A DNA stretch of 64,000 nucleotides, taken from NCBI GenBank assembly GCA_015233675.1, contig JADFXH010000007.1, positions 44,162 through 108,161 of the forward strand, given 5' to 3'. Shown one piece after another: positions 32,001 through 61,657 of the stretch (its first letter is position 1; each line of letters starts with the position of its first letter). Origin of the DNA: Candidatus Omnitrophota bacterium. GTDB taxonomy: Bacteria; Omnitrophota; Gorgyraeia; Zapsychrales; Fredricksoniimonadaceae. The notes beneath the pieces are model-generated. The model was not told the DNA's origin, ran no database searches, and saw only the letters and a list, made by a program, of their open reading frames with translations. Both the position numbers and the translations under genes were made by a program.

Positions 32001-32666
32001 TCATTCCAAATCGATCATTTGAGTATTGCCCACATAATCAACACGTTTGAGCTGCTGCAGGGCATCGATCTTCTTGAGAATAGCAGTGACCTTGCTTAGT
32101 TCATTTTTTATTTTTGACAATGTCAAATGCTTTTTGTCCTTTGGGTCATTTTGAGACAAAAGGATTTCAAGATAGGTGATCGCCGCCATTAATGGTTGAT
32201 TCATATTATGGTTATACGTCACCACCATATTCTTAACTGTCTCGAGATTTGTAATTTGAATTTTTTCTTCTTCAGCCCTTTTGATGCGCAGATGGGCCTT
32301 CACCCGGGTTTTGACTTCTTCGGGATTTATAGGTTTACTAATATAATCAGCCGCTCCTACAGAAAAACATTTAACCATGTCTTCAGGCTTATTCATTGCG
32401 GTAATAAAAAGTATCGGGATAGACTGATGTTTTTCATGCTTCTTAAGCCTTTGGCAAACCTCAAAGCCGTCTATATCCGGCATGATGACATCAAGCAGTA
32501 TAATATCCGGCTTTTCACGCTCCACAGCATCGAGAGCAGCACGGCCGGAATCAGCTTGCACAACTTTATACCCCTCGTCAGCCTGTAAAAGCAGCATTGA
32601 TAAAAGCTCACGGTTCGTCTTTTTATCATCTACAACAAGTATTTTCGAGGTTACTCTTTCCGTCAT
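32001..32666 (-). CDS. receiver domain fused to an H-box/dimerisation-like domain without ATPase domain
   Basis: ILVVDDKKTNRELL ... ILLDVIMPDIDGFE receiver, then YNHNMNQPLMAAITYLEIL. The latter parallels the H-box [20 protein letters not shown] of the kinase at 33224-34390. No N/G boxes follow. Confidence 0.65.
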   Translation of the reverse strand: MTERVTSKILVVDDKKTNRELLSMLLLQADEGYKVVQADSGRAALDAVEREKPDIILLDVIMPDIDGFEVCQRLKKHEKHQSIPILFITAMNKPEDMVKCFSVGAADYISKPINPEEVKTRVKAHLRIKRAEEEKIQITNLETVKNMVVTYNHNMNQPLMAAITYLEILLSQNDPKDKKHLTLSKIKNELSKVTAILKKIDALQQLKRVDYVGNTQMIDLE

Positions 32667-33205
32667 TTCTTTTTATCCCATTTTTTGACGATCGCGCTGA
32701 TCTTGTCCTGCACCTTGCTTTTGATCTCAATATCACTAAGAATAGAGTTCAGCAACTCCTCGTGTTCTTCGGCCATACGCAGGATATCCAGTTTTAATTC
32801 TTCGTTATACCTTTCCAAACGGAAACGTTCAATCGCATGCTTCAAAGGAAGAAGCACCTTATCTTTATCCTCAATGGGTTTAAGGATGTAATCAAAAGCT
32901 CCTTCTCTTAGGGCGTCCTGACAGGTTTCCATCGTGCCGAATCCTGTTAAGAAAATCACAGGGATTTCTTTTTTCCTTAAATTAAGATATCTTAGTAATT
33001 CTATCCCCATTTTACCGGGCATTTTAAGATCACTGATAATAGCTTCAATATCTCTTTTTAATTCAACGACCTTAATAGCATTATCAACGCAATCCGCTAT
33101 GTACACCTGAAAACCTAATGCTTCCAGGAGTTCTTGAAGCGATTCTCTGATGGCTTCTTCATCATCCACTACTAAAACACAACCTTGTTTTTCCTTTGTT
33201 GCCAT
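32663..33205 (-). CDS. response regulator (receiver plus short helical C-terminal tail)
   Basis: VLVVDDEEAIRESL ... IISDLKMPGKMG ... FLTGFG ... KP. It has a 4-nt overlap with the next gene. Confidence 0.75.
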   Translation of the reverse strand: MATKEKQGCVLVVDDEEAIRESLQELLEALGFQVYIADCVDNAIKVVELKRDIEAIISDLKMPGKMGIELLRYLNLRKKEIPVIFLTGFGTMETCQDALREGAFDYILKPIEDKDKVLLPLKHAIERFRLERYNEELKLDILRMAEEHEELLNSILSDIEIKSKVQDKISAIVKKWDKKK

Positions 33206-33223
33206 GGTCTGCCTCCGGTTAAT

Positions 33224-34390
33224 TTACAAATTTTCCAATTCAGCTTTTAGCTCTTTATTTAATGCCTCAACACCGGCCAAATCCTGTTCTTTATCAAGAG
33301 GAAGCACAAAATAAAAAATCTTTCGCTCATTCTTTAAAGATGAAAACCCGATTACCCCTTTATGGCTTTTTATAATGGTAAAAGAAACGGAAAGACCAAG
33401 GCCGGTCCCTTTACCCGGGGCCTTAGTGGTAAAAAAGGGCTCAAAAAGATTCTCCTCTGATCCGCTTTTGACCGCTATCCCATTATCAATAACACCGGAG
33501 ACAATTGCGGGGAAGTTCTTCAATTTTTTAGAAATAAACCAGATGTGGCCGCCTTCCTGTTGATTAAATTTCTCATCAATGGCATCACGGGCATTGATCA
33601 GGAAATTAACCACCACATCCTGGATCTGGTAGCGGTCAATATAAACCTCAGGGAGGTCTTCTTGCAGTTGTAATTCCACGGCAATATTGTGGTCCTTGAA
33701 CTGTTGCGTCAAAAGAAAAAGTCCGTCAGTGATCGGGCGTTTGACGTCCCCTTCGGTAAAGGTGCCCATACGGCTACCGGAATATTCATGCATCCGCTTA
33801 ACGATAGTGCCAAGCCTGACAAACTGGTCCTTGATCTTGAGCATCTTGTTTTTCAGCACCAAATTTGTCACGAGAGCATCATTCATCAAGAGTCCCTCGA
33901 GATAGGATGATATGGCCATCAAAGGCTGGTTCATTTCATGGGCAACACCGGCACCCAATTCCCCCATCGCGGTCAATTTCGCAGCCCGTAAAAGCTGTGT
34001 CTGTTGGATTTTTAACTGCAGGTACAATCTTTGATTTTCCGCGGCCCGGTTGATATTCATACACAGTTCTTCTAAATTAAAAGGTTTAATAATATAATCA
34101 AAAGCCCCTTTTTTTAATGAGGCAATAGCGCTTTCCATGTCCCCATGCCCTGTCAGCATAATCACCTGCGCCTCGGCGTTCATGAGTTTAACTTTTTCCA
34201 GCATTTCCATGCCATCCATGCCGGGCATCGAAATATCGCAAATGATCACTTCCGGTTTCTCTTTGACAAAAGCTTCCAGGCCTTGCTCGCCGCTTGAGGC
34301 AACAAAAACCTCATAGTTCTTGAGTTCCAAGCTGCTTTTGAGCATCTTGCGCTGTATTTCTTCATCATCTACAATCAATATTTTTATCAT
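33224..34390 (-). CDS. receiver-histidine kinase fusion (REC-HisKA-HATPase)
   Basis: [14 protein letters not shown] ... [12 protein letters not shown] receiver, H-box [11 protein letters not shown]-box NARDAI and G-box GKGTGLGLS. Confidence 0.85.
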
Positions 34391-34413
34391 CTTTTTTAAT
34401 TCCCCTTCCCATA

Positions 34414-36027
34414 TCAGGATTTTTCAACGAAGGCGCGTTGTAAATTTTCAAAATTAATTTTTACCTGAAAATATAATTTCTTGATCTCTTCAATACTCCC
34501 TTTCTCTCTTGCCAGATTGTTTATCTCTGCGGCAGGCGTCGACACCGAAGTCAGCCTCAAATTAGAAAAAACCCCCTTTAGTATGTGCGAAGTTTGATCG
34601 ATATGAGTAAAATCATTTTCTACAATCGCTTTTTCTAAATTAGCAACGTCTGCACTTCCTTCCTCCACAGCCCCCCGCGCTATTTTTAAGTAAATATCTA
34701 GGGGGCATTGCAATTCTTTAGAATTTTGCTGGACCATTTCTTCAAACGAATTGATGTTGTTTTCATTGTTCATAGTTTCCCCTTCGCTAACCCCTCCCGC
34801 CAAGGGGAGGGAATCTAATTTGTTATTGCCCCCTCTCTCCAGGGGCGTAGAATTTAATGAACTATTGCCCCCCCCCACCAAAGGTGTGGAATTTAATGAG
34901 CTATTATGGTCTTTCTCAAGTTCAAGAGCCTTGATCTGCAGGGCCTTGATCTGGTCCTCATATTTCTGGATCATCTGGTCCATATGAATGGATTTGCGGA
35001 ATTCCTCAAACTCCTTGCCTTGGGCAAACTGCGCTATCGACTCAACCGCGCCTTTTGTCTTTTCATCGATAAGCTCAAGTTTCATCTTGCCTTCTTGGAT
35101 ACGCAATTTGATCTTGTGCAGTTCTTTCTTTTCTTCATCCATCAGCTTTTCAATATGAAACATTTCAATCTCTGATTTTTTGAAACGGGCCATACGTTCG
35201 CTTGTATCCTTCTGTGCGAGCGTCATGCGCTCGATCTGGTCAGTAAGACGCTTAATCACACTTTCCTTAACTGCGAGTTCTTCATTATTTTGCGGTACGT
35301 TCTTGCCCTGTTGCTCCATCATTGACAGCTGGGCCTTGAGCTTCACGAGCTCTTGCTCTTTCTGGCCGGACTCGGTTGCTTTTGTCTCAAGCTCAGCTTT
35401 AAGATTCTTAACTTCACTCAGAAGACGATTGATCTCGGTTTCCTTGACTGCGATTTCTTCAGTTTTTTGTAAGGCGCTCTTGCTTTCTTCTCCTAATCTT
35501 ATCAGCTCAACCTTGAGCTTCACAATCTCCTGTTCTTTCAAAGTGAATTCGTTCGCCTTGCCCTGGAGTTTTACTTTAAGACTCTCCACTTCACTGAGCA
35601 GGACCCTGTTCTCGCTTTCCTTATGCGCAAGCTCTTCACTGTTTTGAGAAACGTTTTTACCCTGTTCCTCCATTTTTGCCAACTGGACCTTGAGTTTCGT
35701 AAGCTCTAGTTCTTTCTGGGAGGACTCAGTCGCCTTTGACTCGAATTCTTCTTTAATCCTGCGCACTTCACCGACCAAATCCCGAAGATCATTATTTTTT
35801 GAAAGCAATTCTTCATTTTTTCGTGAGGTCTCAGCTTGCAATCTGTCGGATTCTTCTTTTATTTGTTCCAGCTCTTTCTTAAATTTCTCTGGAGCGGTTT
35901 CCGCAAAACTCAACTGCTCCTTTAATATTTTGATCTGCTTGTTTAATTTTGCGTCCTCATTAATGATATAAATGACAACACCGATAGCAACCACAGCACA
36001 CGTTATTGAAAAAATTATTAGGATCAT
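34414..36027 (-). CDS. membrane-anchored long coiled-coil protein with C-terminal HPt (histidine phosphotransfer) domain
   Basis: 537 aa. Contains an N-terminal TM (ILIIFSITCAVVAIGVVIYII), about 340 residues of heptad-rich E/K/L/Q sequence with about 59-aa internal repeats, and a C-terminal SHILKGVFSNLRL HPt signature. It has a 4-nt overlap with the upstream gene. Confidence 0.7.
   Translation of the reverse strand: MILIIFSITCAVVAIGVVIYIINEDAKLNKQIKILKEQLSFAETAPEKFKKELEQIKEESDRLQAETSRKNEELLSKNNDLRDLVGEVRRIKEEFESKATESSQKELELTKLKVQLAKMEEQGKNVSQNSEELAHKESENRVLLSEVESLKVKLQGKANEFTLKEQEIVKLKVELIRLGEESKSALQKTEEIAVKETEINRLLSEVKNLKAELETKATESGQKEQELVKLKAQLSMMEQQGKNVPQNNEELAVKESVIKRLTDQIERMTLAQKDTSERMARFKKSEIEMFHIEKLMDEEKKELHKIKLRIQEGKMKLELIDEKTKGAVESIAQFAQGKEFEEFRKSIHMDQMIQKYEDQIKALQIKALELEKDHNSSLNSTPLVGGGNSSLNSTPLERGGNNKLDSLPLAGGVSEGETMNNENNINSFEEMVQQNSKELQCPLDIYLKIARGAVEEGSADVANLEKAIVENDFTHIDQTSHILKGVFSNLRLTSVSTPAAEINNLAREKGSIEEIKKLYFQVKINFENLQRAFVEKS
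34788..34904. repeat. three tandem 39-bp units of a hairpin repeat, in-frame inside the HPt gene
   Basis: The units at 34788-34826, 34827-34865 and 34866-34904 each have the form C-rich arm / G-rich arm / GAAT(C/T)TAAT. Unit A forms a 7-bp GC hairpin (34792-34811). They translate as SLNSTPLVGGGNS / SLNSTPLERGGNN / KLDSLPLAGGVSE. Confidence 0.8.
35224..35739. repeat. about 177-bp (59-aa) tandem coding repeats, ~3 copies, in the coiled-coil region
   Basis: Protein-level repeats are KATESSQKELELTKLKVQLAKMEEQGKNVSQNSEELAHKESENRVLLSEVESLKVKLQG, KANEFTLKEQEIVKLKVELIRLGEESKSALQKTEEIAVKETEINRLLSEVKNLKAELET and KATESGQKEQELVKLKAQLSMMEQQGKNVPQNNEELAVKESVIKRL. Confidence 0.75.
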
Positions 36028-36644
36028 GCCTTTTCTCCACCAGGCTTAGGTTTTAAGCCCTTTAGCCTGCGAAGTTTTTCAAGTGTCGAATCGATCCCCT
36101 TGGATTCCTTCTCTTCAACGCCGATATCTTCAAGATTGCTTTGGACCTCTTGGTGAACATAAAGCTTGGAAAGATCAATCGACTCAAATTCGGCTGCTTC
36201 TTTAAGCTCCTGTAGCTTGTACTCGCGGGCAGGGCCGCTGAGACCTTTGAGCTCCTTTAGCATACCTGCAATCTTGTCGGAAAGCTTCTCCGATACAGCA
36301 TCGAGGGAACCTTGAAGGATCGCCCCCATATGCGTCTTAAATTCCTCGAGCGTCATGCCAGCTTGCCCCGCTGCAGGAGATGCTACAAGCGGCGCCGGCG
36401 GGACCGATAACGGGACAGCAGGGACCGGCGGCTCTGGTAGCACAGTTCTGGGCTCCTGTATCCTATTTTTCACCCGGGCCGTCACCACATCCATAGAACC
36501 CACAAATTCACCCAGCAGTAATTCCATCTCCATGAGCTCATCATTAAGCTCCTTACGTGACTGCTGAGTGGCATTGATCCTTTGAAATAATCTTGGGACC
36601 AAAACCTCGGGATCATCTATGGTATTTGTATCTTCAGGGCTCAT
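36024..36644 (-). CDS. hypothetical protein with central proline-rich linker (cluster-specific)
   Basis: 206 aa with LPEPPVPAVPLSVPPAPLVASPAAG between two helical segments. It has 4-nt overlaps at both ends, with the actin-like gene upstream and the HPt gene downstream. Confidence 0.5.
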   Translation of the reverse strand: MSPEDTNTIDDPEVLVPRLFQRINATQQSRKELNDELMEMELLLGEFVGSMDVVTARVKNRIQEPRTVLPEPPVPAVPLSVPPAPLVASPAAGQAGMTLEEFKTHMGAILQGSLDAVSEKLSDKIAGMLKELKGLSGPAREYKLQELKEAAEFESIDLSKLYVHQEVQSNLEDIGVEEKESKGIDSTLEKLRRLKGLKPKPGGEKA

Positions 36645-38032
36645 TGGCTCCCACCATTAATTGCATTAAACAAACATCCGCGCACAACACTGGTAAAAGG
36701 CTCCTTGGCGTGAAGGATATTCCCCACGGGAAATCCGAATTTAACCGATTTAATCTCCTCTTGGACGACATCAATAAAACCTGGCACCATGGATGATCCG
36801 CCTGCAAAAACGATATCAGCCGGCTCTTTAAAATGGGGAGTATCCGTGCTTTTGCCAAAGACACGGGCCATGTTCTCAATAAGATAATGGATATAATTAC
36901 GGTAATAGATCGCGATCGCTTCTTCTTCGCGGTTGGCGGGGATCTTGATACTCATGCCATGTTCCTTGATAGTTGAGACACGGGTCGTAGGGACACCAAG
37001 GACAGTCGCCGCGCTTTTATCGATCCAGTCACCGCCGCGCGTGATCGAAAACGACAGCACAGGCACAGACTTAAACGCGGCACATATATTGACCATGCCG
37101 GCCCCACAGGAAATGCCGATACCCGTAAAATCCTGATCTTCCATCTCGGAAAGGACAACGGCATATCCTTCGTCGATAACTAAAGGCTTAAAACCGATAT
37201 TCTTTAGGATCCCTTCAAAAACACCACGGTGGTAGATCGTATCCTGGTCGCGGTCAAGAGGTTTAGCGGGTACTGAAAAACAACAAACCTCGCCTTTTTC
37301 GCGAGGCTCCCATAAAATATTTTTCACTAAAAGCTGGATGATCGGGATAGACTCGGCTTCAGAAGGGTTTAATATCCCCATGTTCATGGACCGTTGTGTT
37401 TCCCGCCCGAAAATGTCCGCAAGCTCCAAAGCCATGCCACCTAAAACATAAAGTTTGTCCTGCAGGGCAACATATTTGATCTTAAGGCGTGTTAACAAAT
37501 CCTTGGTCGATTGATCACAACGCACGGAAAGAAAGGCATTGCGTTCATTCTTCACAAATACCCGTTTGTCCTCAACCTCACGGCTTGCGACAATATAGGC
37601 TGTTCCCAAGTCCAGGCCGACGCCTGTCCTGACCGCAGCGTTCCTGCCGCGGCTCAGCGCCGGAAGTACAACCGTAGTGGTTTCTTCTTCTTTGACAGGA
37701 ACCGGTTCTTGCTCTTCGCCCACCTCCTCGACCGTCTCCTCTTCCATGACAAATGCAAGCTTCTCGACAGGTGGAGGGGGAAGCTCTTCCCTTAGAAAAA
37801 CAGGCGGCTTGACGTCGCGGCCCATGGCGCGAGCACGAATATATTCGTTAATGGCGCGCAGTTTCGCGCGCATTTCGTCAACGGGAATTTCCTGGTCCCC
37901 ACGAAGTCTTTGAGGTTTAATTTCTTTTTCGTTAGAAAACTGCGGGCTCTTGCTTAGGTTGGAATAACTCTTTATCTTATCATTTATCTTTAATAATCGC
38001 TTTCTGATATCCTGCAATTCCTCATCGACCAC
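36641..38032 (-). CDS. actin-like ATPase (MamK/Mad28/MreB superfamily) with ~140-aa N-terminal extension
   Basis: GTG start at 38032 with AGAGG 7 nt upstream. Actin-fold motifs are GVGLDLGTAYIV (phosphate 1), FTGIGISCGAGMVNI (phosphate 2) and IVFAGGSSMVPGF (adenosine). It is a clear paralogue of 38134-39123. Confidence 0.7.
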   Translation of the reverse strand: MVDEELQDIRKRLLKINDKIKSYSNLSKSPQFSNEKEIKPQRLRGDQEIPVDEMRAKLRAINEYIRARAMGRDVKPPVFLREELPPPPVEKLAFVMEEETVEEVGEEQEPVPVKEEETTTVVLPALSRGRNAAVRTGVGLDLGTAYIVASREVEDKRVFVKNERNAFLSVRCDQSTKDLLTRLKIKYVALQDKLYVLGGMALELADIFGRETQRSMNMGILNPSEAESIPIIQLLVKNILWEPREKGEVCCFSVPAKPLDRDQDTIYHRGVFEGILKNIGFKPLVIDEGYAVVLSEMEDQDFTGIGISCGAGMVNICAAFKSVPVLSFSITRGGDWIDKSAATVLGVPTTRVSTIKEHGMSIKIPANREEEAIAIYYRNYIHYLIENMARVFGKSTDTPHFKEPADIVFAGGSSMVPGFIDVVQEEIKSVKFGFPVGNILHAKEPFTSVVRGCLFNAINGGSQ

Positions 38033-38090
38033 TTACTTGCCTCTTTCTTTCCGGCTTCCAAAACTTTTCTCATATCTTCTTTCTATAAAA

Positions 38091-38122
38091 GATTGCTTCG
38101 TCGCTTCGCTCCTCGCAATGAC
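38091..38122. repeat. GTCAT-type palindromic-unit repeat, single arm
   Basis: GATTGCTTCGTCGCTTCGCTCCTCGCAATGAC lies in the gap between the two actin-like genes. It belongs to the same family as the units at 46335, 50001, 60165 and 61564. Confidence 0.6.
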
Positions 38123-38133
38123 ACAGGCTCTTC

Positions 38134-39123
38134 CTATTCTACCTCGCTTAAGCCCGCCAGGAGGCATCCTCTTGCGGTCGCGTACAACGGCTCATCGGCA
38201 AGCCTTACAGTATTGATCGGTATGGGGAAAGACAATTTCTTTAATTCTTCCTTAAAGACATCAACAAACCCGCCGATCATTGAGGAGCCTCCGGCACACA
38301 CAATATCAATGGGTTCCGGGAATTGCGGCATCTGTTCGGCTTTCTCAAATTTATTCTTGATATTGACCAGCGTATAATTAATCAGATTGCGATAATAGAT
38401 ACAGACCGCTTCTTCTTCGCGATTGGCGGGCTTGTTAATATTGATCCCTTTTTCCTTGATGGCGGTCGCCCGGTTGACCTTGATACCGAGAACTTGGGCC
38501 ACATTCTTGTCGATCCAGTCACCCGCTCGGCTCGTCGCAAAACTGATGGCAGGGATCGTCTTATAAGCAACACAAATATTAAACATACCGCCGCCGGCAG
38601 AAATACCGATACCGGTAAAATCCTTGTCTCCTAATTCCGCAAACACCACCGCATGGCCCTCATTCATGGGCTTACCGGTATATCCTAAATTCTTAAGCGC
38701 CCCGGCAATTACGCTTGAGTGGTAAACAATATTGAAGTTCGCATCAACAGGGTCAGCGGGAACGGAATAATAACAAAGCTGTCCTTTTTCATCAGGTTTT
38801 CCAAGGACCGCGTCGATCAAAAGCCCAAAAATGGGAACCGCATCCGCTTCACCGGGACTCATGACGCCATCCTGCATAGGCCGGCGCACGGTTTTATTCA
38901 TGATATTAGCAAGCTCAAAAGCAGAATCACCGAGGATATAAACCTTATTACCCATTTCGGCATATTGTACTTTTTGCTTTTTCAGCATGCTCTTGGTAAA
39001 CGAATTCGCTTCAATATCCAAGAACGTATGGCGCATCAGCTTCAACTTGATCTTGCCGTCTGCTCCCTGTTCAGAGCCAACCAGGTTCATTGTTCCGACG
39101 TCTAATCCCTTAACTTTTCCCAT
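38134..39123 (-). CDS. actin-like ATPase (MamK/Mad28/MreB superfamily)
   Basis: The start was moved to the ATG at 39121-39123 (AGGAG 8 nt upstream). Motifs are VKGLDVGTMNLV, RRPMQDGVM, FTGIGISAGGGMFNI and IVCAGGSSMIGGF. The track extension to 39186 covers a hairpin. Confidence 0.7.
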   Translation of the reverse strand: MGKVKGLDVGTMNLVGSEQGADGKIKLKLMRHTFLDIEANSFTKSMLKKQKVQYAEMGNKVYILGDSAFELANIMNKTVRRPMQDGVMSPGEADAVPIFGLLIDAVLGKPDEKGQLCYYSVPADPVDANFNIVYHSSVIAGALKNLGYTGKPMNEGHAVVFAELGDKDFTGIGISAGGGMFNICVAYKTIPAISFATSRAGDWIDKNVAQVLGIKVNRATAIKEKGININKPANREEEAVCIYYRNLINYTLVNIKNKFEKAEQMPQFPEPIDIVCAGGSSMIGGFVDVFKEELKKLSFPIPINTVRLADEPLYATARGCLLAGLSEVE

Positions 39124-39158
39124 ACGAAAAACTCCTTTTTTAACGCCCCCACCTAAGC

Positions 39159-39176
39159 GCCTGCCTGCTGGCAGGC
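39159..39176. repeat. intercistronic GC hairpin
   Basis: GCCTGCC-TGCT-GGCAGGC, a 7-bp stem with a 4-nt loop, lies between the coiled-coil gene stop (39211) and the actin-like gene start (39123). Confidence 0.5.
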
Positions 39177-39210
39177 TTCTCCCCATCAGTGAGGAGGAAT
39201 AATAGGATTC

Positions 39211-40023
39211 CTATTTATGTTTAGCTTTATAGTAATGTTCTCTGGCACGAGCCCTGGTATCAGCAAGCATCAGACGAATCTCATCAAGGCTCTCCTTGCT
39301 GCGCTCAAGTTCACGGCTGGCCTGGTCTCTTTCAGCAATGATACTGCCAAGTTGGGTTTCCGCCGCATCAAGTTTCCCTGAAATGGATTCTTTCTCATCC
39401 TCCAAAAGCGAAACCTGATGGTGCAGGCTCTGGATCGTCTTGTTAGCGCTCGAAAGCTCAAGCTCAATTTGTTCGATCCTGGTATCACGGGCTTCGCACT
39501 CTTTCTCAAGAGCCGCCATCTTGTTTGTCTGGTCCTTGATGACTGCTTCCCTGCCCTCAAGTTCTTCTTCCACAGACTTCATTTTTCCGACTGACTCAAG
39601 CCGTTCATTTTCAAGAAACTCGAGCTCGGAATTAAGCTCTTCCTGAGAAACCAGCAAACCTTTCATCTCTTTTAACTTTGCCTCGGCGATGGCCGCCTTT
39701 TCTTCCGCCTTTTGGCAACGCTCTTTTAAATTATTAATATCCTTTTCCTGGGCATCCTTAAGACTAAATGAAGCATCCAACTGCTTCTCTAGGTCTCCAA
39801 TGATTTCAAAAACGCTGACCTTCTCCTCCTCGGGAGACATGATATATTTTGTCGAATCCTTAATCTGCCTGACCGCAGAACGGATGGCCGCCTTTGATTC
39901 TGAGGACGTCGTTGCCGGCCTTTGGATCGCTGGCTTTATTGTTGACTGAAGAAGCGGATTATCTATGAGCTTGCTTTTTCTTGAATCCATGCCCCTGTTA
40001 GCTAACTTTTCTTGTTTTTCCAT
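39211..40023 (-). CDS. coiled-coil protein (cluster-specific)
   Basis: 270 aa, of which about 190 residues are E/K/L/Q-rich heptad sequence. Strong RBS AAGGAGA lies 6 nt before the ATG at 40023. It overlaps the ParA-like gene end by 26 nt. Confidence 0.55.
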   Translation of the reverse strand: MEKQEKLANRGMDSRKSKLIDNPLLQSTIKPAIQRPATTSSESKAAIRSAVRQIKDSTKYIMSPEEEKVSVFEIIGDLEKQLDASFSLKDAQEKDINNLKERCQKAEEKAAIAEAKLKEMKGLLVSQEELNSELEFLENERLESVGKMKSVEEELEGREAVIKDQTNKMAALEKECEARDTRIEQIELELSSANKTIQSLHHQVSLLEDEKESISGKLDAAETQLGSIIAERDQASRELERSKESLDEIRLMLADTRARAREHYYKAKHK

Positions 40024-40759
40024 TCAGGATCTCCTTTGCTAATTGACGGTAAGCCTCCGCCCCTTTGGAAGTCTTGTCATACTTATATATAGGAAGGTGG
40101 GCATTATGGGCTTCTTCTATCTTGATATTCTCCGGGATCACGGCCTTAAAAACCTTCTTGCCAAAATAATTCCTGATGGCGTCACGAGCCTCATTGGTCA
40201 CAACACGCTCGCGGTATCGGGTGATCACGACCCCGGTTATCTCAATATCGGAACCAAGTCCATGGCGGACATTCTCAACAATTTCTTCTAAAAGCTTGAT
40301 CCCTTTCAGGGAAAAAAATTCAGGGCAAATAGGCACAACAAGTTCATGACAAGCCGTCAGGGCATTGACAGTCAAAAGCCCCAAAGACGGCGGAGCGTCA
40401 ACAATCATAAAATCATACTTGAGCTTCTGCGTATAATGGTACAGCACTTTTTCGCGGCCGATATGCTCGTTAATCCGCAAAGTGGCGCCTGAGAGTTCAA
40501 TATCACTAGGCACGACGTCAATCCCAAAAGCATCGGAATGCTGGACGACGGTACGGATATCCATCTTATCGACAATGACATTATAAATATTAAATTCAAA
40601 ACGCTGGTTACCGAAGATGGCCGCCGTGGAAGAATACTGAGGGTCCATGTCAATTAAAATAACCTTTTTACCCGCCCGCGCAAGTTCAGCGGCCAGATTC
40701 AATGAAGTTGTGGTCTTGGCAACGCCGCCTTTTTGATTAGCGACACAGATTTTTCTCAT
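39998..40759 (-). CDS. ParA/MinD-family P-loop ATPase
   Basis: Deviant Walker A ANQKGGVAKTTTS with the signature lysine, IDMDPQ, and Walker B-like FMIVDAPPSLG. Confidence 0.85.
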   Translation of the reverse strand: MRKICVANQKGGVAKTTTSLNLAAELARAGKKVILIDMDPQYSSTAAIFGNQRFEFNIYNVIVDKMDIRTVVQHSDAFGIDVVPSDIELSGATLRINEHIGREKVLYHYTQKLKYDFMIVDAPPSLGLLTVNALTACHELVVPICPEFFSLKGIKLLEEIVENVRHGLGSDIEITGVVITRYRERVVTNEARDAIRNYFGKKVFKAVIPENIKIEEAHNAHLPIYKYDKTSKGAEAYRQLAKEILNGKTRKVS

Positions 40760-41269: not shown

Positions 41270-42304
41270 CTACCCCCTTGTTAAGTTTCGTTTAAATTTT
41301 GTCTGATTCTCTCGCCACCAGAACCTCCAAGACTCAATAGCGTCTTCCTTATCCCTTTTCGTGGACTTGGCTTTAAAGCCAAAATCCTCACCCGTTATTT
41401 TCTTTAATGATGCCGCAGCCGTTAACTGGACATCGCTTTCAGGATCTGCCAAAAGCGTAATAAGCCCTGATATAGCTTGTGGCACCTTCAGAGCACCGGA
41501 AATCTGGCTTGCGGCCTTTCTGACACCGGAATCCGGATCATGCAAAGCATTAACAGCATAAATCACGCATTTATCGCCAAAGCTCCAGCAAAGGCAATTT
41601 AAAATCTGCCTGCGCACCTCAGGGTCTTTATCTTTTATGAAAGAAACTAAAATATTAAAGCCTTCATCATCGTGATATTTGGAGATAGCCCGCAGGGCTG
41701 CCAGACGTATGCCTGTATCCTGGTGGTGAATGAATTTCTTGAATACATCTTTAGAAGTGGTTGCCTCTTCGCTGATAAATGCCAAGGCATTTAATAATTC
41801 AATGATCTGCAAAGTGTCTTGCTCGCGGGAAAGCAGATCTTCAAGCATCGCGGTTGCTGTGGCCCCCGAAAGCTTCTTGATCTGGCGCAAGGCCTGCATC
41901 CGTATGGCCCTGCTGGGCGACTGGAGGTCCCTAAAATATATTTCCACCTCGACCTCTTCGGTCTTGTTGGCATATGCCATATCTTTCATTGCGACCATAC
42001 GATTAGCAGGCTTCTTCGGGGCAACAGGCTCTGGAGTTATTCTCTCTAAAACAGCCGGAGGCGCTTCTGCCAGAGGCGATTCTTCCGTAGCTACCAAGGG
42101 AGCTGTTGGGATAATCACCGGCGACGGAGCTTGAGGCTGGACAACAGGAATAGGCATGGACACAGAGGACTTTGGAAAACTCTGACGTGGCATACTCTTG
42201 CCAAATGTAAAAAGATAGTTAAATTCTTTTTCCACGCCTTTGACCGCAGCTCCAAGAAAATGAGCCAAATTGTTCTGACCACCCGACGGAATTTTTGTTT
42301 GCAT
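41270..42304 (-). CDS. HEAT-repeat (PBS-lyase type) protein
   Basis: The C-terminal 200 aa contain repeats SPSRAIRMQALRQI, HQDTGIRLAALRAI, DKDPEVRRQILNCL, DPDSGVRKAASQI and DPESDVQLTAAASL. The N-terminus is proline-rich. Confidence 0.7.
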   Translation of the reverse strand: MQTKIPSGGQNNLAHFLGAAVKGVEKEFNYLFTFGKSMPRQSFPKSSVSMPIPVVQPQAPSPVIIPTAPLVATEESPLAEAPPAVLERITPEPVAPKKPANRMVAMKDMAYANKTEEVEVEIYFRDLQSPSRAIRMQALRQIKKLSGATATAMLEDLLSREQDTLQIIELLNALAFISEEATTSKDVFKKFIHHQDTGIRLAALRAISKYHDDEGFNILVSFIKDKDPEVRRQILNCLCWSFGDKCVIYAVNALHDPDSGVRKAASQISGALKVPQAISGLITLLADPESDVQLTAAASLKKITGEDFGFKAKSTKRDKEDAIESWRFWWRENQTKFKRNLTRG

Positions 42305-42980: not shown

Positions 42981-44678
42981 TTATTTCCGTCTTTTATTTT
43001 CCGCTGGCAAAACCGCTTTCTGCCCGAGCTTGTTGCCGGCAGCACTCTCCCTTTGTAAATCACGCAAGAGACGAGGTTTGGTATAACTTTCTTTAGCGAT
43101 CGCCTTCCAAACCCGCGCCTGCCGCTTGCGCTCAGGAAGAGGCGCTGAATAATCATACCCCTTATCTGTCCCGGTTATTGCCATAAGGGCTTCAATAGTT
43201 TCTTTACAAACCTTAATATTAACTGATTCTAGTTTCGGGACTAAAGTCACAAAGGCAAAATGGTTCGCCATAATCCCAAGCTTGCGAATCGCCAAACGAG
43301 CAACTCCTTCATCGCTATCACCGGAAAGACGCGCAATGGCCTCTGCTTCGGGACCACCGGCCCTGTGATCGAGATGGTTGACGATAAAACGTCTGATATG
43401 AGCATCAGGATCCCTGATAGCGGACACGATAACATGCTTTGCTTCCTCGGAGCCGAGCTTAACGAGCCCCATCATCCCCTGCAGCCGAAGCGAAGAATTC
43501 TCATCATTGATAAAGCGACGATAAACATCGACCATGGTCGGATAGTCCAGCGTGCCCAAAAGTGAAATGAGCTTCCTTTGAAAAAAAATATCCGCTTCAC
43601 GGGTGAGTTCATAAAGAAAAGGGACCGCCCTTTTAGGAGCATTACGAAAAAGAGTATGTAAGACCGCGAGCTTATCATCATCCGAAGTGCTCTCATTTCC
43701 CAGTTTGCGTGAGGCGGTCTCCAACAGGCCGTAGTCTCCCTGGTCCTCGAGCTCTTCGTCATTTCCGTTCTCAACGACTTCCTGTTGTTCGGACAAAACT
43801 TCTTCTTGTGTTTCACCAGAAACTTCTTCGGCGAGATCTTCCGGATATTCCGGTAGCGGCACAGGAGGTTCCAACGGCTGGGTGACAGGACGGAAAGATC
43901 CCTGACGGTCAATACGCGCCAGCTCAAGGTCTTTTTCATAGACATCGTTGATATTTTTAAAAAGGACGATGACCTCGTCGATAAGGTCATCCACACGCCT
44001 GGTCGTCTCGTTGACTTCCAGCCTAATCTGCTCAAGGAAAGACTCTTCAGCCTTCCACATGGCAACCTCGGGATTGTCCGCAAAAAATTTCTTTTTATTT
44101 TCCATAATACGTTTGATCTCCTCCCGCTTCTGGGCCATCAAAAAAGTAATCTTTTGGATCTTTTCATCCACAGCGGCCTGATAAGCCGCAGTCCTCTCGC
44201 CAGTAGTGTGCATAAGACCCGCAGAAAGACAATCACTCAAATCCTTCTGGACATCGAGGATCTTATTTTCGGCCACACGCAACGCAACATTAAGCTTAGT
44301 GTATGGCTCAAATTGCCCCCGCCGGGATATCCCGGATGGGCGCTGTTCTTGACTAACAGGCGCTGGCGCAAAAGAAACATCAGCCTCTCCCACACAGTTA
44401 ATCGGCAGGGATTCTGAAACTTTGAATTTTGGCAATGGCTCGGACTTAGCTACCGATAAAGGCTCCCGCTTCTCTTTTCTGTCAGAAATCTTTTCTGCGA
44501 CAACATCCCTGATAAGCCGCTTGGCTACAACCGTTAATTTAGGATTATCCGGTTCAAAATAATAAGCAATAGCCCCTGCCTGAATATTCTCATAAAGCAG
44601 CCTGCCGAAGGTGATGAATAAAGAATCAGCCTGTTTTTCGCATTCCTGAAGAAATTCACGTGTATTTTTTGTTGGCAT
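42981..44678 (-). CDS. coiled-coil plus HEAT-repeat protein
   Basis: 565 aa. Contains a helical N-terminal half, an acidic linker (EEVSGETQEEVLSEQQEVVENGNDEELEDQ), and HEAT units DENSSLRLQGMMGL, DPDAHIRRFIVNHL and DSDEGVARLAIRKL. Its start overlaps the upstream stop in a TAATG arrangement. Confidence 0.65.
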   Translation of the reverse strand: MPTKNTREFLQECEKQADSLFITFGRLLYENIQAGAIAYYFEPDNPKLTVVAKRLIRDVVAEKISDRKEKREPLSVAKSEPLPKFKVSESLPINCVGEADVSFAPAPVSQEQRPSGISRRGQFEPYTKLNVALRVAENKILDVQKDLSDCLSAGLMHTTGERTAAYQAAVDEKIQKITFLMAQKREEIKRIMENKKKFFADNPEVAMWKAEESFLEQIRLEVNETTRRVDDLIDEVIVLFKNINDVYEKDLELARIDRQGSFRPVTQPLEPPVPLPEYPEDLAEEVSGETQEEVLSEQQEVVENGNDEELEDQGDYGLLETASRKLGNESTSDDDKLAVLHTLFRNAPKRAVPFLYELTREADIFFQRKLISLLGTLDYPTMVDVYRRFINDENSSLRLQGMMGLVKLGSEEAKHVIVSAIRDPDAHIRRFIVNHLDHRAGGPEAEAIARLSGDSDEGVARLAIRKLGIMANHFAFVTLVPKLESVNIKVCKETIEALMAITGTDKGYDYSAPLPERKRQARVWKAIAKESYTKPRLLRDLQRESAAGNKLGQKAVLPAENKRRK

Positions 44679-45169
44679 TATACTTCCGCAACATCCTTGG
44701 TGACATTTTCAATTTCTTTTTCAAGATCAAGATTAACCGGCGCTTTTTTTTCGATCTGAGCCTTACTTTTAGTTTTTCTGACAGGACTTTTAGCGTTGGT
44801 CTTCTTACCCACGACTTTCTTTTTATGCGCAACAGGGACTTCAATAACAGCCTCTTTTTTCTGCAGGGTTGTTTTCTTGGATGAGCTCTGGAGGTGTCCT
44901 TCACCGACAGAATCCATCCCAGCCTTAAAAGACGCCCTTATTTCCCGCGTGCTTTTCTCAACGGTATCGGTCACCTGGCCCAATACAACCTCAGCCTTCT
45001 CACCAAAGGATTCACAAATATCCTGAGTTGCCACGACCATGCTTTTCAAAGGCTTCTTTTCTGCTACCTGGCCTAACTCCACAACCTTTTTGCAAAGAAA
45101 CCCCGTCTTGTACGAAAGGGTCTTTAAGAGCCCTATTATTTCATCTTTCTTACCTTTTTCTTTTACCAT
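44678..45169 (-). CDS. Lys-rich hypothetical protein (cluster-specific)
   Basis: 163 aa. It overlaps the upstream gene by 20 nt. No family was recognised. Confidence 0.45.
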   Translation of the reverse strand: MVKEKGKKDEIIGLLKTLSYKTGFLCKKVVELGQVAEKKPLKSMVVATQDICESFGEKAEVVLGQVTDTVEKSTREIRASFKAGMDSVGEGHLQSSSKKTTLQKKEAVIEVPVAHKKKVVGKKTNAKSPVRKTKSKAQIEKKAPVNLDLEKEIENVTKDVAEV

Positions 45170-46271
45170 AATTTTTATTCCTTTTTCTTTCGGGCATGAG
45201 CTTTTCTAATGCCTTCTCAGCCGCTTTTTTAACGTCTTGCTCTTTATCAGAAAGCAAATTCTTGACTACGGTCAGCGCTCCCTCGGGTTTAACGATTGAC
45301 AACATCTCCAGCAAACTTATACGGACATAAGGATTAGTGTCTTCCCAAGCTGTAATTGCCTTCTTAACACCTTCCTTGCCATAATAAATCCCCAAATAGG
45401 TCACGGCAAGCCCGCGGATATGCTCGTCACTGTCACTCAACAGGCCATCGAGAATCTTACGGTTCCTGTCACTCACATGACTGCCGAGCCCCTTGACCGC
45501 CGCTGTCCTGACCTTGGCATCAGCGTCATTCATGCCCAAGTCAAAGAATCCTTCAGCTTCGCCTTGTTTCATCCGTGATACATTCTTGATAACAGCAAGG
45601 CGGACCAGGCTGCTCTCATCCTTCATCGCAAATTCGTAAACCTGGTGCAGGATATCTTTCGGGGTAATATGGGCGATCTGGCCGATAGCGACCTCGCGTT
45701 CACGCTGGGTGCCCATTGAAAGCTGATTGATATTCTTTTCAAAAAGCCTCCTGTCCGCATCACAATTGAAACTGGCCGTCTCCAAAAGCCGGGTTAAAGT
45801 GTCATCCGGCCTGATCCTCTCCTCAACAAACGGAGAGCTCGCTGAACTTTCTTCCTCAACGGCTTTATTAACCTCAGATTCGACAGTACTCGTTTCTTCA
45901 AGCTCAATTTCGTCTTCTACTACGGCCTCTTGCTGGATCTCACCTTCATCTTCCTTTTCATCTTCTACTGCAGATTCCGCTTCAAGCTCATCTTCAACCT
46001 CATCTTCAATCTCATCTTCCTCTTGATAGACGGCTGTGTCATCCTCTGACTCTTCCTCATCTTCATCCTCAAGCTCCTCAATCTTCGTTATCCTTTCATC
46101 CAGATAATCCAAAAGCCTCGTAATCTTTTCAATCTCTTGTTCTTTTGGGCGGTCTTCAGATGCAAAACCAAAACTTATCTCTTTAGATTTATAAAGTTTA
46201 TAAACCGCTTCGCCGAACAAAAAGATCAACTTTCTCTGTTTAGACTTAAGTTCTTGCAGATGTTGATCCAT
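45150..46271 (-). CDS. acidic-domain plus HEAT-repeat protein
   Basis: RBS AGGAGAG lies 7 nt before the ATG. Residues ~65-150 are extremely Glu/Asp-rich (EELEDEDEEESEDD...EDEIEDEVEDELEAES...). The C-terminal HEAT units are DADAKVRTAAVKGL, DSDEHIRGLAVTYL, DTNPYVRISLLEML and DKEQDVKKAAEKAL. Confidence 0.65.
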   Translation of the reverse strand: MDQHLQELKSKQRKLIFLFGEAVYKLYKSKEISFGFASEDRPKEQEIEKITRLLDYLDERITKIEELEDEDEEESEDDTAVYQEEDEIEDEVEDELEAESAVEDEKEDEGEIQQEAVVEDEIELEETSTVESEVNKAVEEESSASSPFVEERIRPDDTLTRLLETASFNCDADRRLFEKNINQLSMGTQREREVAIGQIAHITPKDILHQVYEFAMKDESSLVRLAVIKNVSRMKQGEAEGFFDLGMNDADAKVRTAAVKGLGSHVSDRNRKILDGLLSDSDEHIRGLAVTYLGIYYGKEGVKKAITAWEDTNPYVRISLLEMLSIVKPEGALTVVKNLLSDKEQDVKKAAEKALEKLMPERKRNKNYGKRKR

Positions 46272-51823: not shown

Positions 51824-52864
51824 TTACACAAAAAATAATTTAACCGCTAGTATCACAAGAATAACTACAAAAAGGTAAAGCGTTACTTTTGTATTCAACT
51901 TGGGCGCAATGCGCGCCCCTGCCTGCGCTCCGACGATGACACCAATCCCCATCCACATGGCCTCTGCATAACAGACATTTCCCAGAAACACATGCGGCAA
52001 AAGCGCGATGGCGCACGTCAGAAGCGTCACAAAATGGCTCGTCGCTGTCGCGACATGCGACGGATATCTCAAAAGAAAAATCAAAATCGGCACTTGGAAC
52101 ACGCCGCCGCCAATACCCAGAAACCCGCATAAGAATCCCAACAAAAGGTTCATTGAGATACCAAGCTTATCATTCGAATAATAATCATACTTGACGCCAA
52201 AGCTGTCCATAAATCTTACCCTGCGGTGTCCTGCGGCCTTGGCTTCCTTAAGCAAAACCTGTTGCTGCTCATCTGTTTTGTCAACCCTGCCGACACTCAT
52301 GATGGTATACACAGCCAAAAAGATCAGAAAAACGCCGAAGACTTCATTGAAAAACGTCAAATTGATCAGGTGATGCGTAAAGCTGGAGATAAGCGCCCCG
52401 GGCATGGCGGCAAGAGTGAATTGTATGCCGCCTTTATAATCGATCCTTTTTTGCATGGCATAACCGACACAACCAGACCCTGCATTTAAAAAAACGATAA
52501 AGAGCGATGTGGCTACCAGAAGTTCATTTTCCCAACCGAAAAATAAGACCAGCAACGGAAGAATAATAGGGCCTCCGCCAATCCCAACGATAGTTCCATA
52601 GCAGCCGACAATAAGACCGCTCACAAGCAAAAGCCACGCCGGTTGATCAGGAATAGCCGCAGGTGTATTAACTGCCCCTGCCTGCGGGAGAGCGGCCAGC
52701 ATTGACGGCTGTCCTGAAAAAGGAACCTGCATCGACTGCGGGGTCGGAGCCGCTGTTTTAGACGGAAGGAACATCGCAGCAAAAATCACAAGTACTATCG
52801 CGATAACAAGCCCTATCTTAAGATAACTCATCCAATTATAAACAGTTTCATTTTTATTGAACAT
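51824..52864 (-). CDS. mamO: TauE/SafE-family anion permease (MamO C-terminal-domain type)
   Basis: 346 aa with two internal repeats of 4 TM, carrying GIGGGPIILPLLV and GIGGGVFQVPILI motifs typical of TauE. Its position in the cluster matches the split mamO-Cter of deep-branching clusters. Confidence 0.5.
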   Translation of the reverse strand: MFNKNETVYNWMSYLKIGLVIAIVLVIFAAMFLPSKTAAPTPQSMQVPFSGQPSMLAALPQAGAVNTPAAIPDQPAWLLLVSGLIVGCYGTIVGIGGGPIILPLLVLFFGWENELLVATSLFIVFLNAGSGCVGYAMQKRIDYKGGIQFTLAAMPGALISSFTHHLINLTFFNEVFGVFLIFLAVYTIMSVGRVDKTDEQQQVLLKEAKAAGHRRVRFMDSFGVKYDYYSNDKLGISMNLLLGFLCGFLGIGGGVFQVPILIFLLRYPSHVATATSHFVTLLTCAIALLPHVFLGNVCYAEAMWMGIGVIVGAQAGARIAPKLNTKVTLYLFVVILVILAVKLFFV

Positions 52865-61538: not shown

Positions 61539-61563
61539 ATAATCCCTCCATATGCCGCTGATT

Positions 61564-61657
61564 GTCATCCTGAGTGCAACGAAGGATCTTAAGACTCTTA
61601 AGATTCTTCGGCAAATATAACGATTGCCCGGTTTAAGGGCCTTCGCCTCAGAATGAC
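61564..61657. repeat. GTCAT-type palindromic element, two inverted arms with an insert
   Basis: GTCATCCTGAGTGCAACGAAGGATCTTAAG ... GGCCTTCGCCTCAGAATGAC lies in the gap between the PDZ gene stop (61664) and the start at 61538. Confidence 0.65.

Follow-up and report, generated by a model that had tools for sequence, protein, structure and literature searches.

Two adjacent genes on the minus strand of contig JADFXH010000007.1 from a Candidatus Omnitrophota bacterium encode actin-like ATPases, here labelled paralogues A and B. They lie at positions 36641-39123 of the stretch of 64,000 nucleotides (nt) that was analysed (the window, in whose positions all coordinates are given unless another locus is named). 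According to our analysis both very probably belong to the family of Mad28, the second actin of deep-branching magnetotactic bacteria. With moderate confidence in the overall picture, its mechanism included, we posit that A and B are anciently diverged Mad28-family paralogues in the chain-organisation ('mad'-type) part of an Omnitrophota magnetosome gene cluster. Family membership, integrity of the motifs, tandem synteny, conservation of motifs in the N-terminal extension of B and the magnetosome-cluster context are directly supported. The pair represents a natural experiment on how an actin scaffold specialises for organelle positioning and on which of its parts carries the targeting information.

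Two actin-like paralogues in tandem

The two genes and their parts are as follows:

38134..39123, minus strand: paralogue A, 329 amino acids (aa), Mad28/Volactin-family actin-like ATPase without N-terminal extension (MGKVKGLDVGT...)
38033..38133, minus strand: A-B spacer, 101 nt, with a Shine-Dalgarno-like AAGAGG 7 nt ahead of the GTG of B
36641..38032, minus strand: paralogue B, 463 aa, Mad28/Volactin-family actin-like ATPase with a GTG start and a 137-aa N-terminal extension
36641..37621, minus strand: actin-fold core of B, aa 138-463 plus the stop codon

A first-pass annotation, made from the sequence by eye, had described tandem actin-like paralogues at this place. The list of open reading frames (ORFs) confirms them with two minus-strand ORFs in the region, 38134..39186 (the open frame of A) and 36641..38032 (B), as does a BLASTP alignment of the proteins, with A taken from the ATG at 39123: 146 of 321 positions are identical (45%), 67% are positive and the E-value is 2e-112. 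The long colinear blocks noticed by eye extend through all 321 aligned residues with no gap. A tblastn search of the window detected A and B alone and no third copy.

The start of A was placed at the ATG at 39123, because 56 of the 58 A-type orthologues begin 2-22 residues (median 6) ahead of GLDxGT, as in MGKVKGLDVGT, and because AAAGGAG sits 8 nt upstream; the end coordinate given in the first-pass annotation is therefore the correct start of A. B begins with the GTG at 38032, immediately after an in-frame TAA and with AAGAGG 7 nt upstream. The same GTG start is used in the public annotation (P0001, 100% identical to B), where A is represented by P0121, likewise at 100% identity; both come from a contig of 124,925 bp in a Candidatus Omnitrophica metagenome-assembled genome. 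The codons in frame before the start of B (38033-38056, minus strand) read ...S-R-K-E-R-G-K-TAA. The closest B orthologues, P0002, P0003, P0005 and P0007, encode ...KERGK-S-VV(D/E)xEL..., with a serine codon where the window has the stop, and B is 9-12 residues shorter at its N-terminus than these four. The B orthologues P0006, P0008 and P0012 likewise start at MVD(D/E)EL.

A regulatory element in the A-B spacer was considered and rejected, since neither its signals nor its fold rose above chance: the scan for promoters and terminators found no site there, with counts at the level of shuffled sequence, and the fold of the spacer had z = -0.97.

Assignment to the Mad28/Volactin family

Both proteins match Pfam family PF25216 (Volactin) along the full length of the profile and above its cut-off of 35 bits, A with 268.6 bits (E 1.2e-79, profile positions 3-320 of 321) and B with 273.7 bits (E 3.2e-81, positions 3-321 of 321, residues 138-457). 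The same profile recognises Mad28 of Desulfamplus magnetovallimortis BW-1 at 9.9e-80. This protein of 403 aa was retrieved by an exact-match genome scan with primer RPA655 (supplement, Awal et al. 2023), and its C-terminus equals the residues encoded by the published reverse primer. Mad28 is the bacterial side of a family that Pfam has named after archaeal volactin. In BLASTP comparisons, A is 38% identical to BW-1 Mad28 over 327 aa (E 4e-79) and B 34% over 345 aa (E 2e-70); the values for Mad28 of Solidesulfovibrio magneticus RS-1 (P0324) are 34% for A and 32% for B. The suggestion of the first-pass annotation that the copies are of the Mad28 type is thus supported by 32-38% identity over the whole core to both reference proteins, by the shared Pfam family and by the phosphate-2 serine discussed below. 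We regard membership of A and B in the Mad28 family as highly probable on these grounds.

The competing assignment, that A and B are loosely annotated MamK or housekeeping MreB or FtsA proteins, draws on the public record, which names them 'cell division FtsA domain-containing protein', on weak Pfam FtsA matches, and on PDB, where a sequence search matched MamK entries only (E about 1e-6) and the top structural matches are MamK and MreB. However, the FtsA scores (23.9 and 19.1 bits), which are the sole Pfam matches besides Volactin, fall under the cut-off of 31.8, Pfam MreB_Mbl matches neither protein, and the NCBIfam MamK model NF040964 gives partial matches of 29.3 and 23.7 bits against a cut-off of 400. 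Identity of B to the MamK and MreB structures is only 14-19%, as opposed to about 270 bits for both proteins with the Volactin profile. Because the Pfam and NCBIfam cut-offs and the structure comparison all refute it, we consider this assignment extremely improbable. Neither copy clusters with MreB or FtsA, and the impression that neither is a canonical MamK was correct. In annotation, 'Mad28-family actin-like protein' could replace the public names 'FtsA domain-containing protein' and 'hypothetical protein'.

Nucleotide-binding motifs and predicted fold

All motifs quoted in the first-pass annotation (GLDxGT, phosphate-2, adenosine and the shared blocks) were found in the A-B alignment. Phosphate-1 reads GLDVGT in A and GLDLGT in B, AGGSSM is present in both, and further motif pairs (A / B) are FTGIGISAGGGM / FTGIGISCGAGM, SFATSRAGDWIDK / SFSITRGGDWIDK and PANREEEAVCIYYRN / PANREEEAIAIYYRN. 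In 50 orthologues of B, five actin-fold motifs are invariant: G139-D141-G143-T144, E288-G289, T303-G304-G306-S308-G310-G312, G411-G412 and R451-G452. The phosphate-2 motif of Mad28 has been described as xxxSxGxGxx, with Ser replacing the Asp of MamK and MreB, alongside conserved phosphate-1, adenosine and connect-2 motifs (Awal et al. 2023). A and B both carry this serine, in GISAGGG and GISCGAG, respectively; it corresponds to the invariant S308 of the B orthologues, and GISxGxG is kept in all four clades compared. The nucleotide-binding residues are therefore not degenerate, with motifs intact and invariant in both the A and the B lineages.

The AlphaFold2 (AF2) model of B, built from the 50-sequence alignment, has a mean predicted local distance difference test score (pLDDT) of 81.9, with the core mostly above 90. 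Foldseek places MamK (5ljv) first among PDB structures, with a template modelling (TM) score of 0.74 on the target and 19% identity, followed by MreB (14-17% identity). The Mad28/Volactin family itself has no solved structure in PDB, where MamK and MreB are the nearest entries. Judged by sequence, A and B are intact actin-fold ATPases of the Mad28 family. As all nucleotide-binding motifs are kept, including the Mad28-specific serine, both are predicted to form filaments, and most likely do so in an ATP-dependent manner, as shown for Mad28 of BW-1 and RS-1.

An old duplication maintained across Omnitrophota

Orthologue clusters were counted in a database of 5.8 billion proteins. B-type proteins that are full length, extension included, make up about 67 clusters with 48-84% identity to B, and every named organism among them belongs to Omnitrophica/Omnitrophota. 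The Omnitrophota orthologues of A form 58 clusters with 68-94% identity. Next to these, at about 60% identity to A, come hundreds of proteins of 345-400 aa, which are from Planctomycetota wherever an organism is named; homologues of this type share 44-50% identity with B. A and B are adjacent and have the same neighbours in the Omnitrophota loci L001, L002, L003 and L010, and 25 A/B cluster pairs agree in the length of their longest contig, which places the tandem on at least 25 Omnitrophota contigs.

For the 22 pairs with complete cores, mean identity between genomes is 73% for A and 66% for the core of B, A is the better conserved of the two in 92% of the comparisons between genomes, and B is the faster-evolving copy by a factor of about 1.4. 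Within these 22 genomes, identity between A and B is always 40-46%. This steady value, together with the conservation of both genes, indicates an old duplication with purifying selection on both copies and no gene conversion. A neighbour-joining (NJ) tree was calculated from 324 core columns of 99 sequences with 200 bootstraps; it is distance-based, has no outgroup and may be affected by long branches. A (100%), B (99.5%) and canonical Mad28 (100%) were each recovered as monophyletic. Recent local duplication or gene conversion is ruled out by the constant identity and the separate clades. Of the 'Mad28-type duplication' proposed in the first-pass annotation, the family assignment stands, but a simple local duplication does not.

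The NJ tree separates A and the Planctomycetota-type proteins from B and canonical Mad28 (93.5%), and midpoint rooting yields (canonical Mad28, ((Planctomycetota-type, A), (B, X))), where B is a clade of its own and the small group X its neighbour. A third Omnitrophota group, sister to B in the NJ tree, is formed by P0076 (HQL21_05690, 487 aa) and P0080 (454 aa), which have a different N-terminal extension (MPINKNKLDDIDKIIYDIHKLLDAEKEREI...). One member of this group is from the metagenome-assembled genome (MAG) HQL21, in which an A-B pair is present on another contig. P0303 (ABID83_04970, 393 aa), whose label likewise reads Candidatus Omnitrophota, shares 58% identity with BW-1 Mad28 and is of the canonical rather than the A or B type; either some Omnitrophota have the canonical form, or this contig was mis-binned or horizontally acquired.

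The N-terminal extension of B

A charged, proline-containing N-terminal region of roughly 140 aa had been noted on B. It measures 137 aa, with 27 acidic, 24 basic and 12 proline residues, and has no counterpart in A. Its parts are:

37952..38029, minus strand: helix H1, aa 2-27, VDEELQDIRKRLLKINDKIKS..., AF2 pLDDT 75-87, with heptad-spaced hydrophobic residues
37826..37882, minus strand: helix H2, aa 51-69, VDEMRAKLRAINEYIRARA, AF2 pLDDT 83-88
37622..37825, minus strand: disordered spacer, aa 70-137, proline-rich and then acidic, including an 'LP' motif (P124)

Across the 50-sequence alignment the extension consists of three conserved islands in a variable background. The first is H1, with the pattern D-x-E-L-x-x-V-R-x-R-L-x-K-x-N-x-K-V-K, in which L13 is invariant and L6 conserved in at least 90% of orthologues. 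The second is H2, with the pattern S-L-E-E-M-R-x-K-L-R-A-I-N-x-Y-L-R, in which L58 is invariant and K57, I61, N62 and Y64 reach at least 90%. The third is the LP motif about 14 residues ahead of the core, whose P124 is likewise conserved in at least 90%. The spacer between H2 and the LP motif differs in length by 0 to about 80 aa among orthologues. AF2 predicts disorder for aa 26-46 and 83-130 (pLDDT below 50 for the latter), and residues 96-137 have a net charge of -7. Mean hydrophobicity is -0.49 for H1 and -0.34 for H2, and both have heptad-spaced hydrophobic residues. Because they are strongly hydrophilic overall, we infer that the helices would be of a protein-binding or coiled-coil type rather than membrane-inserting.

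Searched alone against 1.84 billion representative proteins, the extension retrieved B-type proteins only, plus one spurious repeat protein. Its 'M-x-D-E...L..R.RL' appearance, which the canonical Mad28 N-terminus shares, may be due to chance or too short to score. The conserved and lineage-specific motifs of the extension would fit an adaptor role, as had been proposed in the first-pass annotation.

Position within the magnetosome gene cluster

A magnetosome gene cluster occupies the minus strand of the window, starting at about 64 kb and reaching down to about 32 kb. Its first half encodes, in order, a MamE-like protease, a PDZ protein, a magnetochrome/FeMo-co-domain protein, MamP, MamM, MamB, MamA and MamQ. 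The middle encodes a PDZ plus MamN-like protein, TauE, FeoB, a FecR-like protein, DtxR/FeoA and three HEAT-repeat proteins with small ORFs between them. At the end lie genes for a ParA/MinD-type ATPase and a 270-aa coiled-coil protein, then A and B, and then genes for a 206-aa protein, a 537-aa coiled-coil-Hpt protein, and response regulators and a histidine kinase. Genes of the HEAT, coiled-coil and ParA-like types share this strand with mamE, P, M, B, A and Q and with feoB, all within 27 kb, which is the context expected of Mad28. The 64-kb window encodes no MamK, and exact look-ups of the proteins encoded at 62296-63681 and 61664-62299 returned no record for either. The immediate neighbours of the pair are:

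41270-42304, 42981-44678 and 45150-46271, minus strand: three HEAT-repeat proteins (Pfam HEAT_2, HEAT), with small unannotated ORFs between them, upstream of the ParA-like gene
39998..40759, minus strand: ParA/MinD-type P-loop ATPase, 253 aa (Pfam AAA_31 4.8e-49; CbiA, ParA, MipZ), overlapping the coiled-coil gene by 26 nt
39211..40023, minus strand: 270-aa coiled-coil protein directly upstream of A, with sub-threshold tropomyosin/SMC-type matches only
36024..36644, minus strand: 206-aa protein without Pfam or NCBIfam match, whose start overlaps the stop of B by 4 nt
34414..36027, minus strand: 537-aa coiled-coil protein with a C-terminal Hpt domain (5.9e-06, 26.9 bits, cut-off 24.6, residues 454-530), overlapping the 206-aa gene by 4 nt
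32663..34390, minus strand: response regulator (RR)/histidine kinase (HK) hybrid of 388 aa and a 180-aa response regulator (Pfam Response_reg, HisKA, HATPase_c)

Much of this neighbourhood recurs in other Omnitrophota. A protein of 261-279 aa takes the place of the 270-aa protein in L001, L002, L003 and L010, and tblastn found it at 51-55% identity in L031 and L080. The ParA-like gene is syntenic in the Omnitrophota loci compared; orthology to the ParA-like genes beside canonical Mad28 (BW-1, L008) was rejected, as the similarity (27-31% over the N-terminal half) is only generic. The place of the 206-aa gene is taken by one for 183-219 aa in L001, L003 and L010, with a tblastn match of 61% identity in L011. 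The order HEAT...HEAT...ParA-coiled-coil-A-B is repeated in L003 and L010; HEAT repeats are also present in RS-1 Mad23 (PMC12748827). Downstream of the actin genes, a pair of 388 aa and 179-190 aa was found in L001, L002 and L003, and the arrangement RR-HK-RR in L010.

Overlaps of 4-26 nt between genes, together with the lack of promoter or terminator signals above the shuffle level, suggest a single transcription unit through A and B. The 537-aa protein has coiled-coil-type profile matches besides the Hpt domain. In the window (32001-36027, minus strand) as well as in L001, L002, L003 and L010, the Hpt coiled-coil gene, the RR/HK hybrid and single-domain response regulators always follow A-B. 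The conservation of an Hpt protein and of RR and kinase genes downstream of A-B suggests two-component (phosphorelay) control of the actin module.

Three further genes of the cluster, all on the minus strand, were noted. Between the MamE-like and MamP genes (60252-61568), a protein of 438 aa combines a FeMo-cofactor-binding-type domain (PF02579) with a C-terminal magnetochrome domain (PF18509). At 52919-54721, a MamN-like transporter domain (245 bits, cut-off 500) is joined to an N-terminal PDZ/DegP-like segment in a protein of 600 aa, whose gene is followed by one for a TauE/SafE-family protein (51824-52864).

Link of the pair to magnetosomes

Several results weigh against the overall picture favoured here. 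In the NJ tree, A and B lie outside the canonical Desulfobacterota Mad28 clade and are in this sense not strict orthologues of it, and A groups with magnetosome-unlinked Planctomycetota homologues (94% bootstrap). The deep order rests on this tree, as discrete signature columns are too few (3 versus 1 versus 2). The extension of B gave no significant match to the N-terminal region of canonical Mad28 of about 70 aa (hhalign probability 9%, E 0.004). Within flanks of 10 kb, physical linkage of the block to mam genes is not universal: in L010 the HEAT-ParA-A-B block stands directly after an FtsW/RodA gene (L010 1-1298), and in L001 it follows unrelated genes (Fic-like, AAA_14, NAPRTase; L001 1-6617). 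Because the Planctomycetota homologues sit in housekeeping contexts without magnetosome genes, the ancestral function of the A/B sub-branch was probably not related to magnetosomes. In L006 and L007, the two loci of this type that were examined, the gene is found among NDK, NFACT, peptidase and regulator/HK genes, with no magnetosome genes.

These two Planctomycetota-type loci (L006 6024-9062, on a contig of 7.9 Mb, and L007 6086-9128, the one labelled Planctomycetota) have a single Volactin-family gene behind two conserved unannotated genes (about 235 aa; 236-284 aa), the second of which ends where the actin gene begins. Orthology between the coiled-coil gene upstream of A and the gene upstream of the Planctomycetota homologues was rejected, the BLASTP similarity being compositional only (E 0.001, 0.74).

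A and B might accordingly be part of a general cytoskeletal module of the Planctomycetota-Verrucomicrobiota-Chlamydiota (PVC) type, acting in shape, polarity or division, unspecific for magnetosomes and merely adjoining the cluster in this genome. The similarity of A to hundreds of Planctomycetota proteins (about 60%), from loci that had no mam genes where examined, and the flanks of the block in L010 and L001 are in line with this, as is the action of the archaeal namesake volactin in cell-shape transitions (PMC10869688). A general module would be at odds with the count of only about 60 clusters each of the A and B type, although Omnitrophota are abundant in metagenomes. It would also be at odds with the many named A- and B-type sources that are HQL-tagged Omnitrophica MAGs, which we take to be those obtained by magnetic enrichment in Lin et al. 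2020. Both in the window and in L003, moreover, the block comes after feoB/fecR/dtxR and is contiguous with these and with mam genes, and its HEAT, coiled-coil and ParA-like neighbourhood mirrors the mad clusters of canonical Mad28 (L008, L009, BW-1). We therefore regard a magnetosome-unspecific module as unlikely and retain the assignment to the mad-type part of the cluster, in which the HEAT...ParA-coiled-coil-A-B block behaves like a module of its own whose flanks vary.

Tandem pairs elsewhere and possible roles of A and B

A metagenome scan for the family yielded 80 loci, 12 of which have two tandem copies (L030, L035, L036, L038, L039, L044, L045, L047, L048, L049, L052 and L060). These 12 lie outside Omnitrophota, have a G+C content of 52-70%, and include several contig names that recur from soil or rhizosphere samples, the sample types being known by name only. 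The first copy is short (335-372 aa, 11 complete) and the second long (516-711 aa, 11 callable). The long copy has an N-terminal domain of about 165 aa that is well conserved, and in most loci its C-terminal tail is rich in proline. The 165-aa domain has a sub-threshold match to a ParB helix-turn-helix (HTH) profile (19 bits versus 22.6) and no sequence match in PDB. The soil long copy may join an actin to a putative DNA-binding HTH domain. L060, the sole locus of which the ORFs were read, has a coiled-coil-like gene just upstream of the tandem pair.

In the NJ tree the cores of the soil tandems fall apart from B. The idea that B, canonical Mad28 and the long soil copies descend from one ancient 'long' lineage found no support (bootstrap 0% for S2+B+X and 44% for short versus rest), and homology of the 165-aa domain was found neither to the canonical Mad28 N-terminus nor to the extension of B (probability 0.2%). 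The family thus has a constant core with lineage-specific N-termini: none in A and the short soil copy, a short and poorly conserved one in Planctomycetota, about 70 aa in canonical Mad28, the two-helix tail in B, another type in P0076 and P0080, and the ParB-HTH-like domain in the soil long copy. Such a pattern would be expected if targeting or partner specificity resided in the N-terminus.

Multiple copies also occur in the canonical clade, whose loci L008 and L009 have mad-type surroundings with MamK-like, HEAT, CreS-like coiled-coil and ParA-like genes. L008 (7050-13382) encodes a ParA-like protein, a Mad28 of 363 aa, a protein of 202 aa, a second Mad28 of 391 aa, a protein of 160 aa and an MreB_Mbl/Salactin-type protein (359 aa, probably MamK). 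Its two Mad28 copies are 79% identical and represent an independent, recent duplication.

Two other divisions of labour between A and B were considered. The first is an obligate heteropolymer, also raised in the first-pass annotation, in which A and B would share one mixed filament, either alternating or with A decorated, nucleated or capped by B, and neither would work alone. Strict tandem co-occurrence with similar cluster numbers (58 for A, about 67 for B) and the colinear, gap-free alignment are compatible with it, and a slow and a faster copy would suit a structural and an accessory subunit. MamK and Mad28 have been reported to cross-interact (PMC10653835), and tandem pairs of a short and an N-extended copy recur in the metagenome loci. 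Yet the single-copy Mad28 of BW-1 and RS-1 and the single-copy Planctomycetota homologues evidently work without a partner paralogue, and 45% identity leaves room for incompatible filament interfaces. An obligate mixed filament therefore appears to us a possible but rather doubtful arrangement.

In the second, B would have kept the actin fold and lost filament function, acting as a non-polymerising regulator, e.g. a membrane or partner anchor or an ATPase switch. Its faster evolution and long extension might point this way, and in RS-1 an N-terminal fusion of Dendra2 to Mad28 forms no filaments, so that the N-terminus is sensitive to modification (PMC12713370). Set against this are the five nucleotide-binding and connect motifs that are invariant in 50 orthologues of B, the mean identity of 66% that the core still retains, and the fact that canonical Mad28 polymerises despite its own extension of about 70 aa. 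We consider loss of polymerisation in B quite improbable.

The mechanism that we favour instead involves filament formation, partner binding, a tether function and magnetosome positioning, all of which we infer, as would hold for any interaction between A and B. A, without extension, would supply the conservative filament subunit, and B, the faster-evolving copy, a filament or filament-associated subunit. The extension of B would most likely act as a flexible tether that docks the filament system onto the 270-aa or 537-aa coiled-coil proteins, the 206-aa protein, the HEAT proteins or the ParA-like ATPase. Docking would couple the filaments to the magnetosome chain and so position the chain in the cell, possibly under phosphorelay control by the downstream Hpt protein and the response-regulator and kinase genes.

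A further-reaching scenario can be put forward tentatively. A may be the structural subunit of a two-subunit system, drawn from a widespread PVC lineage that is not linked to magnetosomes, and B may co-assemble with or nucleate it and tether it to chain coiled-coil proteins through the two-helix extension. Mad28/Volactin would then be one large and largely uncharacterised cytoskeletal family of bacteria and archaea that has repeatedly evolved pairs of a short and an N-extended copy with different modules, and that was recruited, not invented, by magnetotactic lineages.

Comparison with known systems

The closest known counterpart is Mad28 of BW-1 and RS-1, whose filaments have been documented both in vivo and in vitro and which can in part take over from MamK (PMC10653835). 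In RS-1, Mad28 keeps the magnetosome chain at positive cell curvature, and its only two-hybrid partner was the coiled-coil protein Mad25 (PMC12748827). RS-1 Mad28 has an N-terminal region that contains amphipathic helices and is needed for filaments, which the N-terminally truncated protein does not form (PMC12713370). A and B resemble these proteins in Pfam family, core identity (32-38%) and Ser-for-Asp phosphate-2 motif, and all are encoded amid HEAT, coiled-coil and ParA-like genes of a magnetosome cluster. Like B and unlike A, canonical Mad28 has an N-terminal region ahead of the core. In contrast to BW-1 and RS-1, however, the window has two deeply diverged copies, not one, both outside the canonical clade (100% bootstrap); the extension of B is twice as long and not detectably homologous, and the adjacent ParA-like protein is only generically related.

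The presence of mad genes in Omnitrophota has been reported (PMC12713370), and mad28 can occur in several divergent copies, being multi-copy in magnetotactic Nitrospirota and Thermodesulfobacteriota (Awal et al.). Multiple divergent copies were thus already known, and an A-B pair was largely to be expected. Like such clusters, and like L008 of the canonical clade, the window has more than one Mad28-family gene per magnetosome cluster. The pair differs from the recent copies of L008 in its 45% identity, in its conservation across the lineage and in the different architectures of its members. In the literature searched, we did not find the short plus long (two-helix) architecture fixed across Omnitrophota, the closeness of A to magnetosome-unlinked Planctomycetota proteins, or a statement that one Pfam family holds both Mad28 and volactin. 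None of the papers in this search named the two together, and the volactin study does not mention MamK or magnetosomes (PMC10869688).

MamK shares with A and B the actin fold and the location in magnetosome clusters, and as a filament former it provides the nearest solved structure (5ljv). It differs from them by its low identity (19%), by different phosphate-2 and connect-1 motifs and by a NCBIfam model of which A and B fall more than 370 bits short. The deletion phenotypes of MamK and Mad28 in RS-1 differ as well (PMC12748827).

Within the PVC group, saltatorellin of Saltatorellota is an actin homologue that forms filaments (bioRxiv 10.1101/817700); its published primer-encoded termini matched none of the family proteins retrieved here. 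The Planctomycetota Volactin-family proteins are similar to A (about 60%) and B (44-50%), have the same motifs and, like A, a coiled-coil-like gene directly upstream. They differ from the pair in being single copy, in their short and unconserved N-termini and in their housekeeping neighbourhoods without mam genes.

Volactin itself (HVO_2015 of Haloferax volcanii) forms dynamic filaments in vivo and acts in the transition from rod to disk shape (PMC10869688). Against the Pfam profile that bears its name, A and B score about 270 bits over the full length, a comparison made via the profile only. Volactin differs from the pair in being archaeal, in its role in cell shape and in having no link to magnetosomes. 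Mad28 thereby shares a sequence family with archaeal volactin and with thousands of unnamed proteins, those of Planctomycetota being among the ones with a named source. If this link holds, Mad28 would be a general cytoskeletal protein that was recruited to magnetosomes, not a magnetosome-specific invention.

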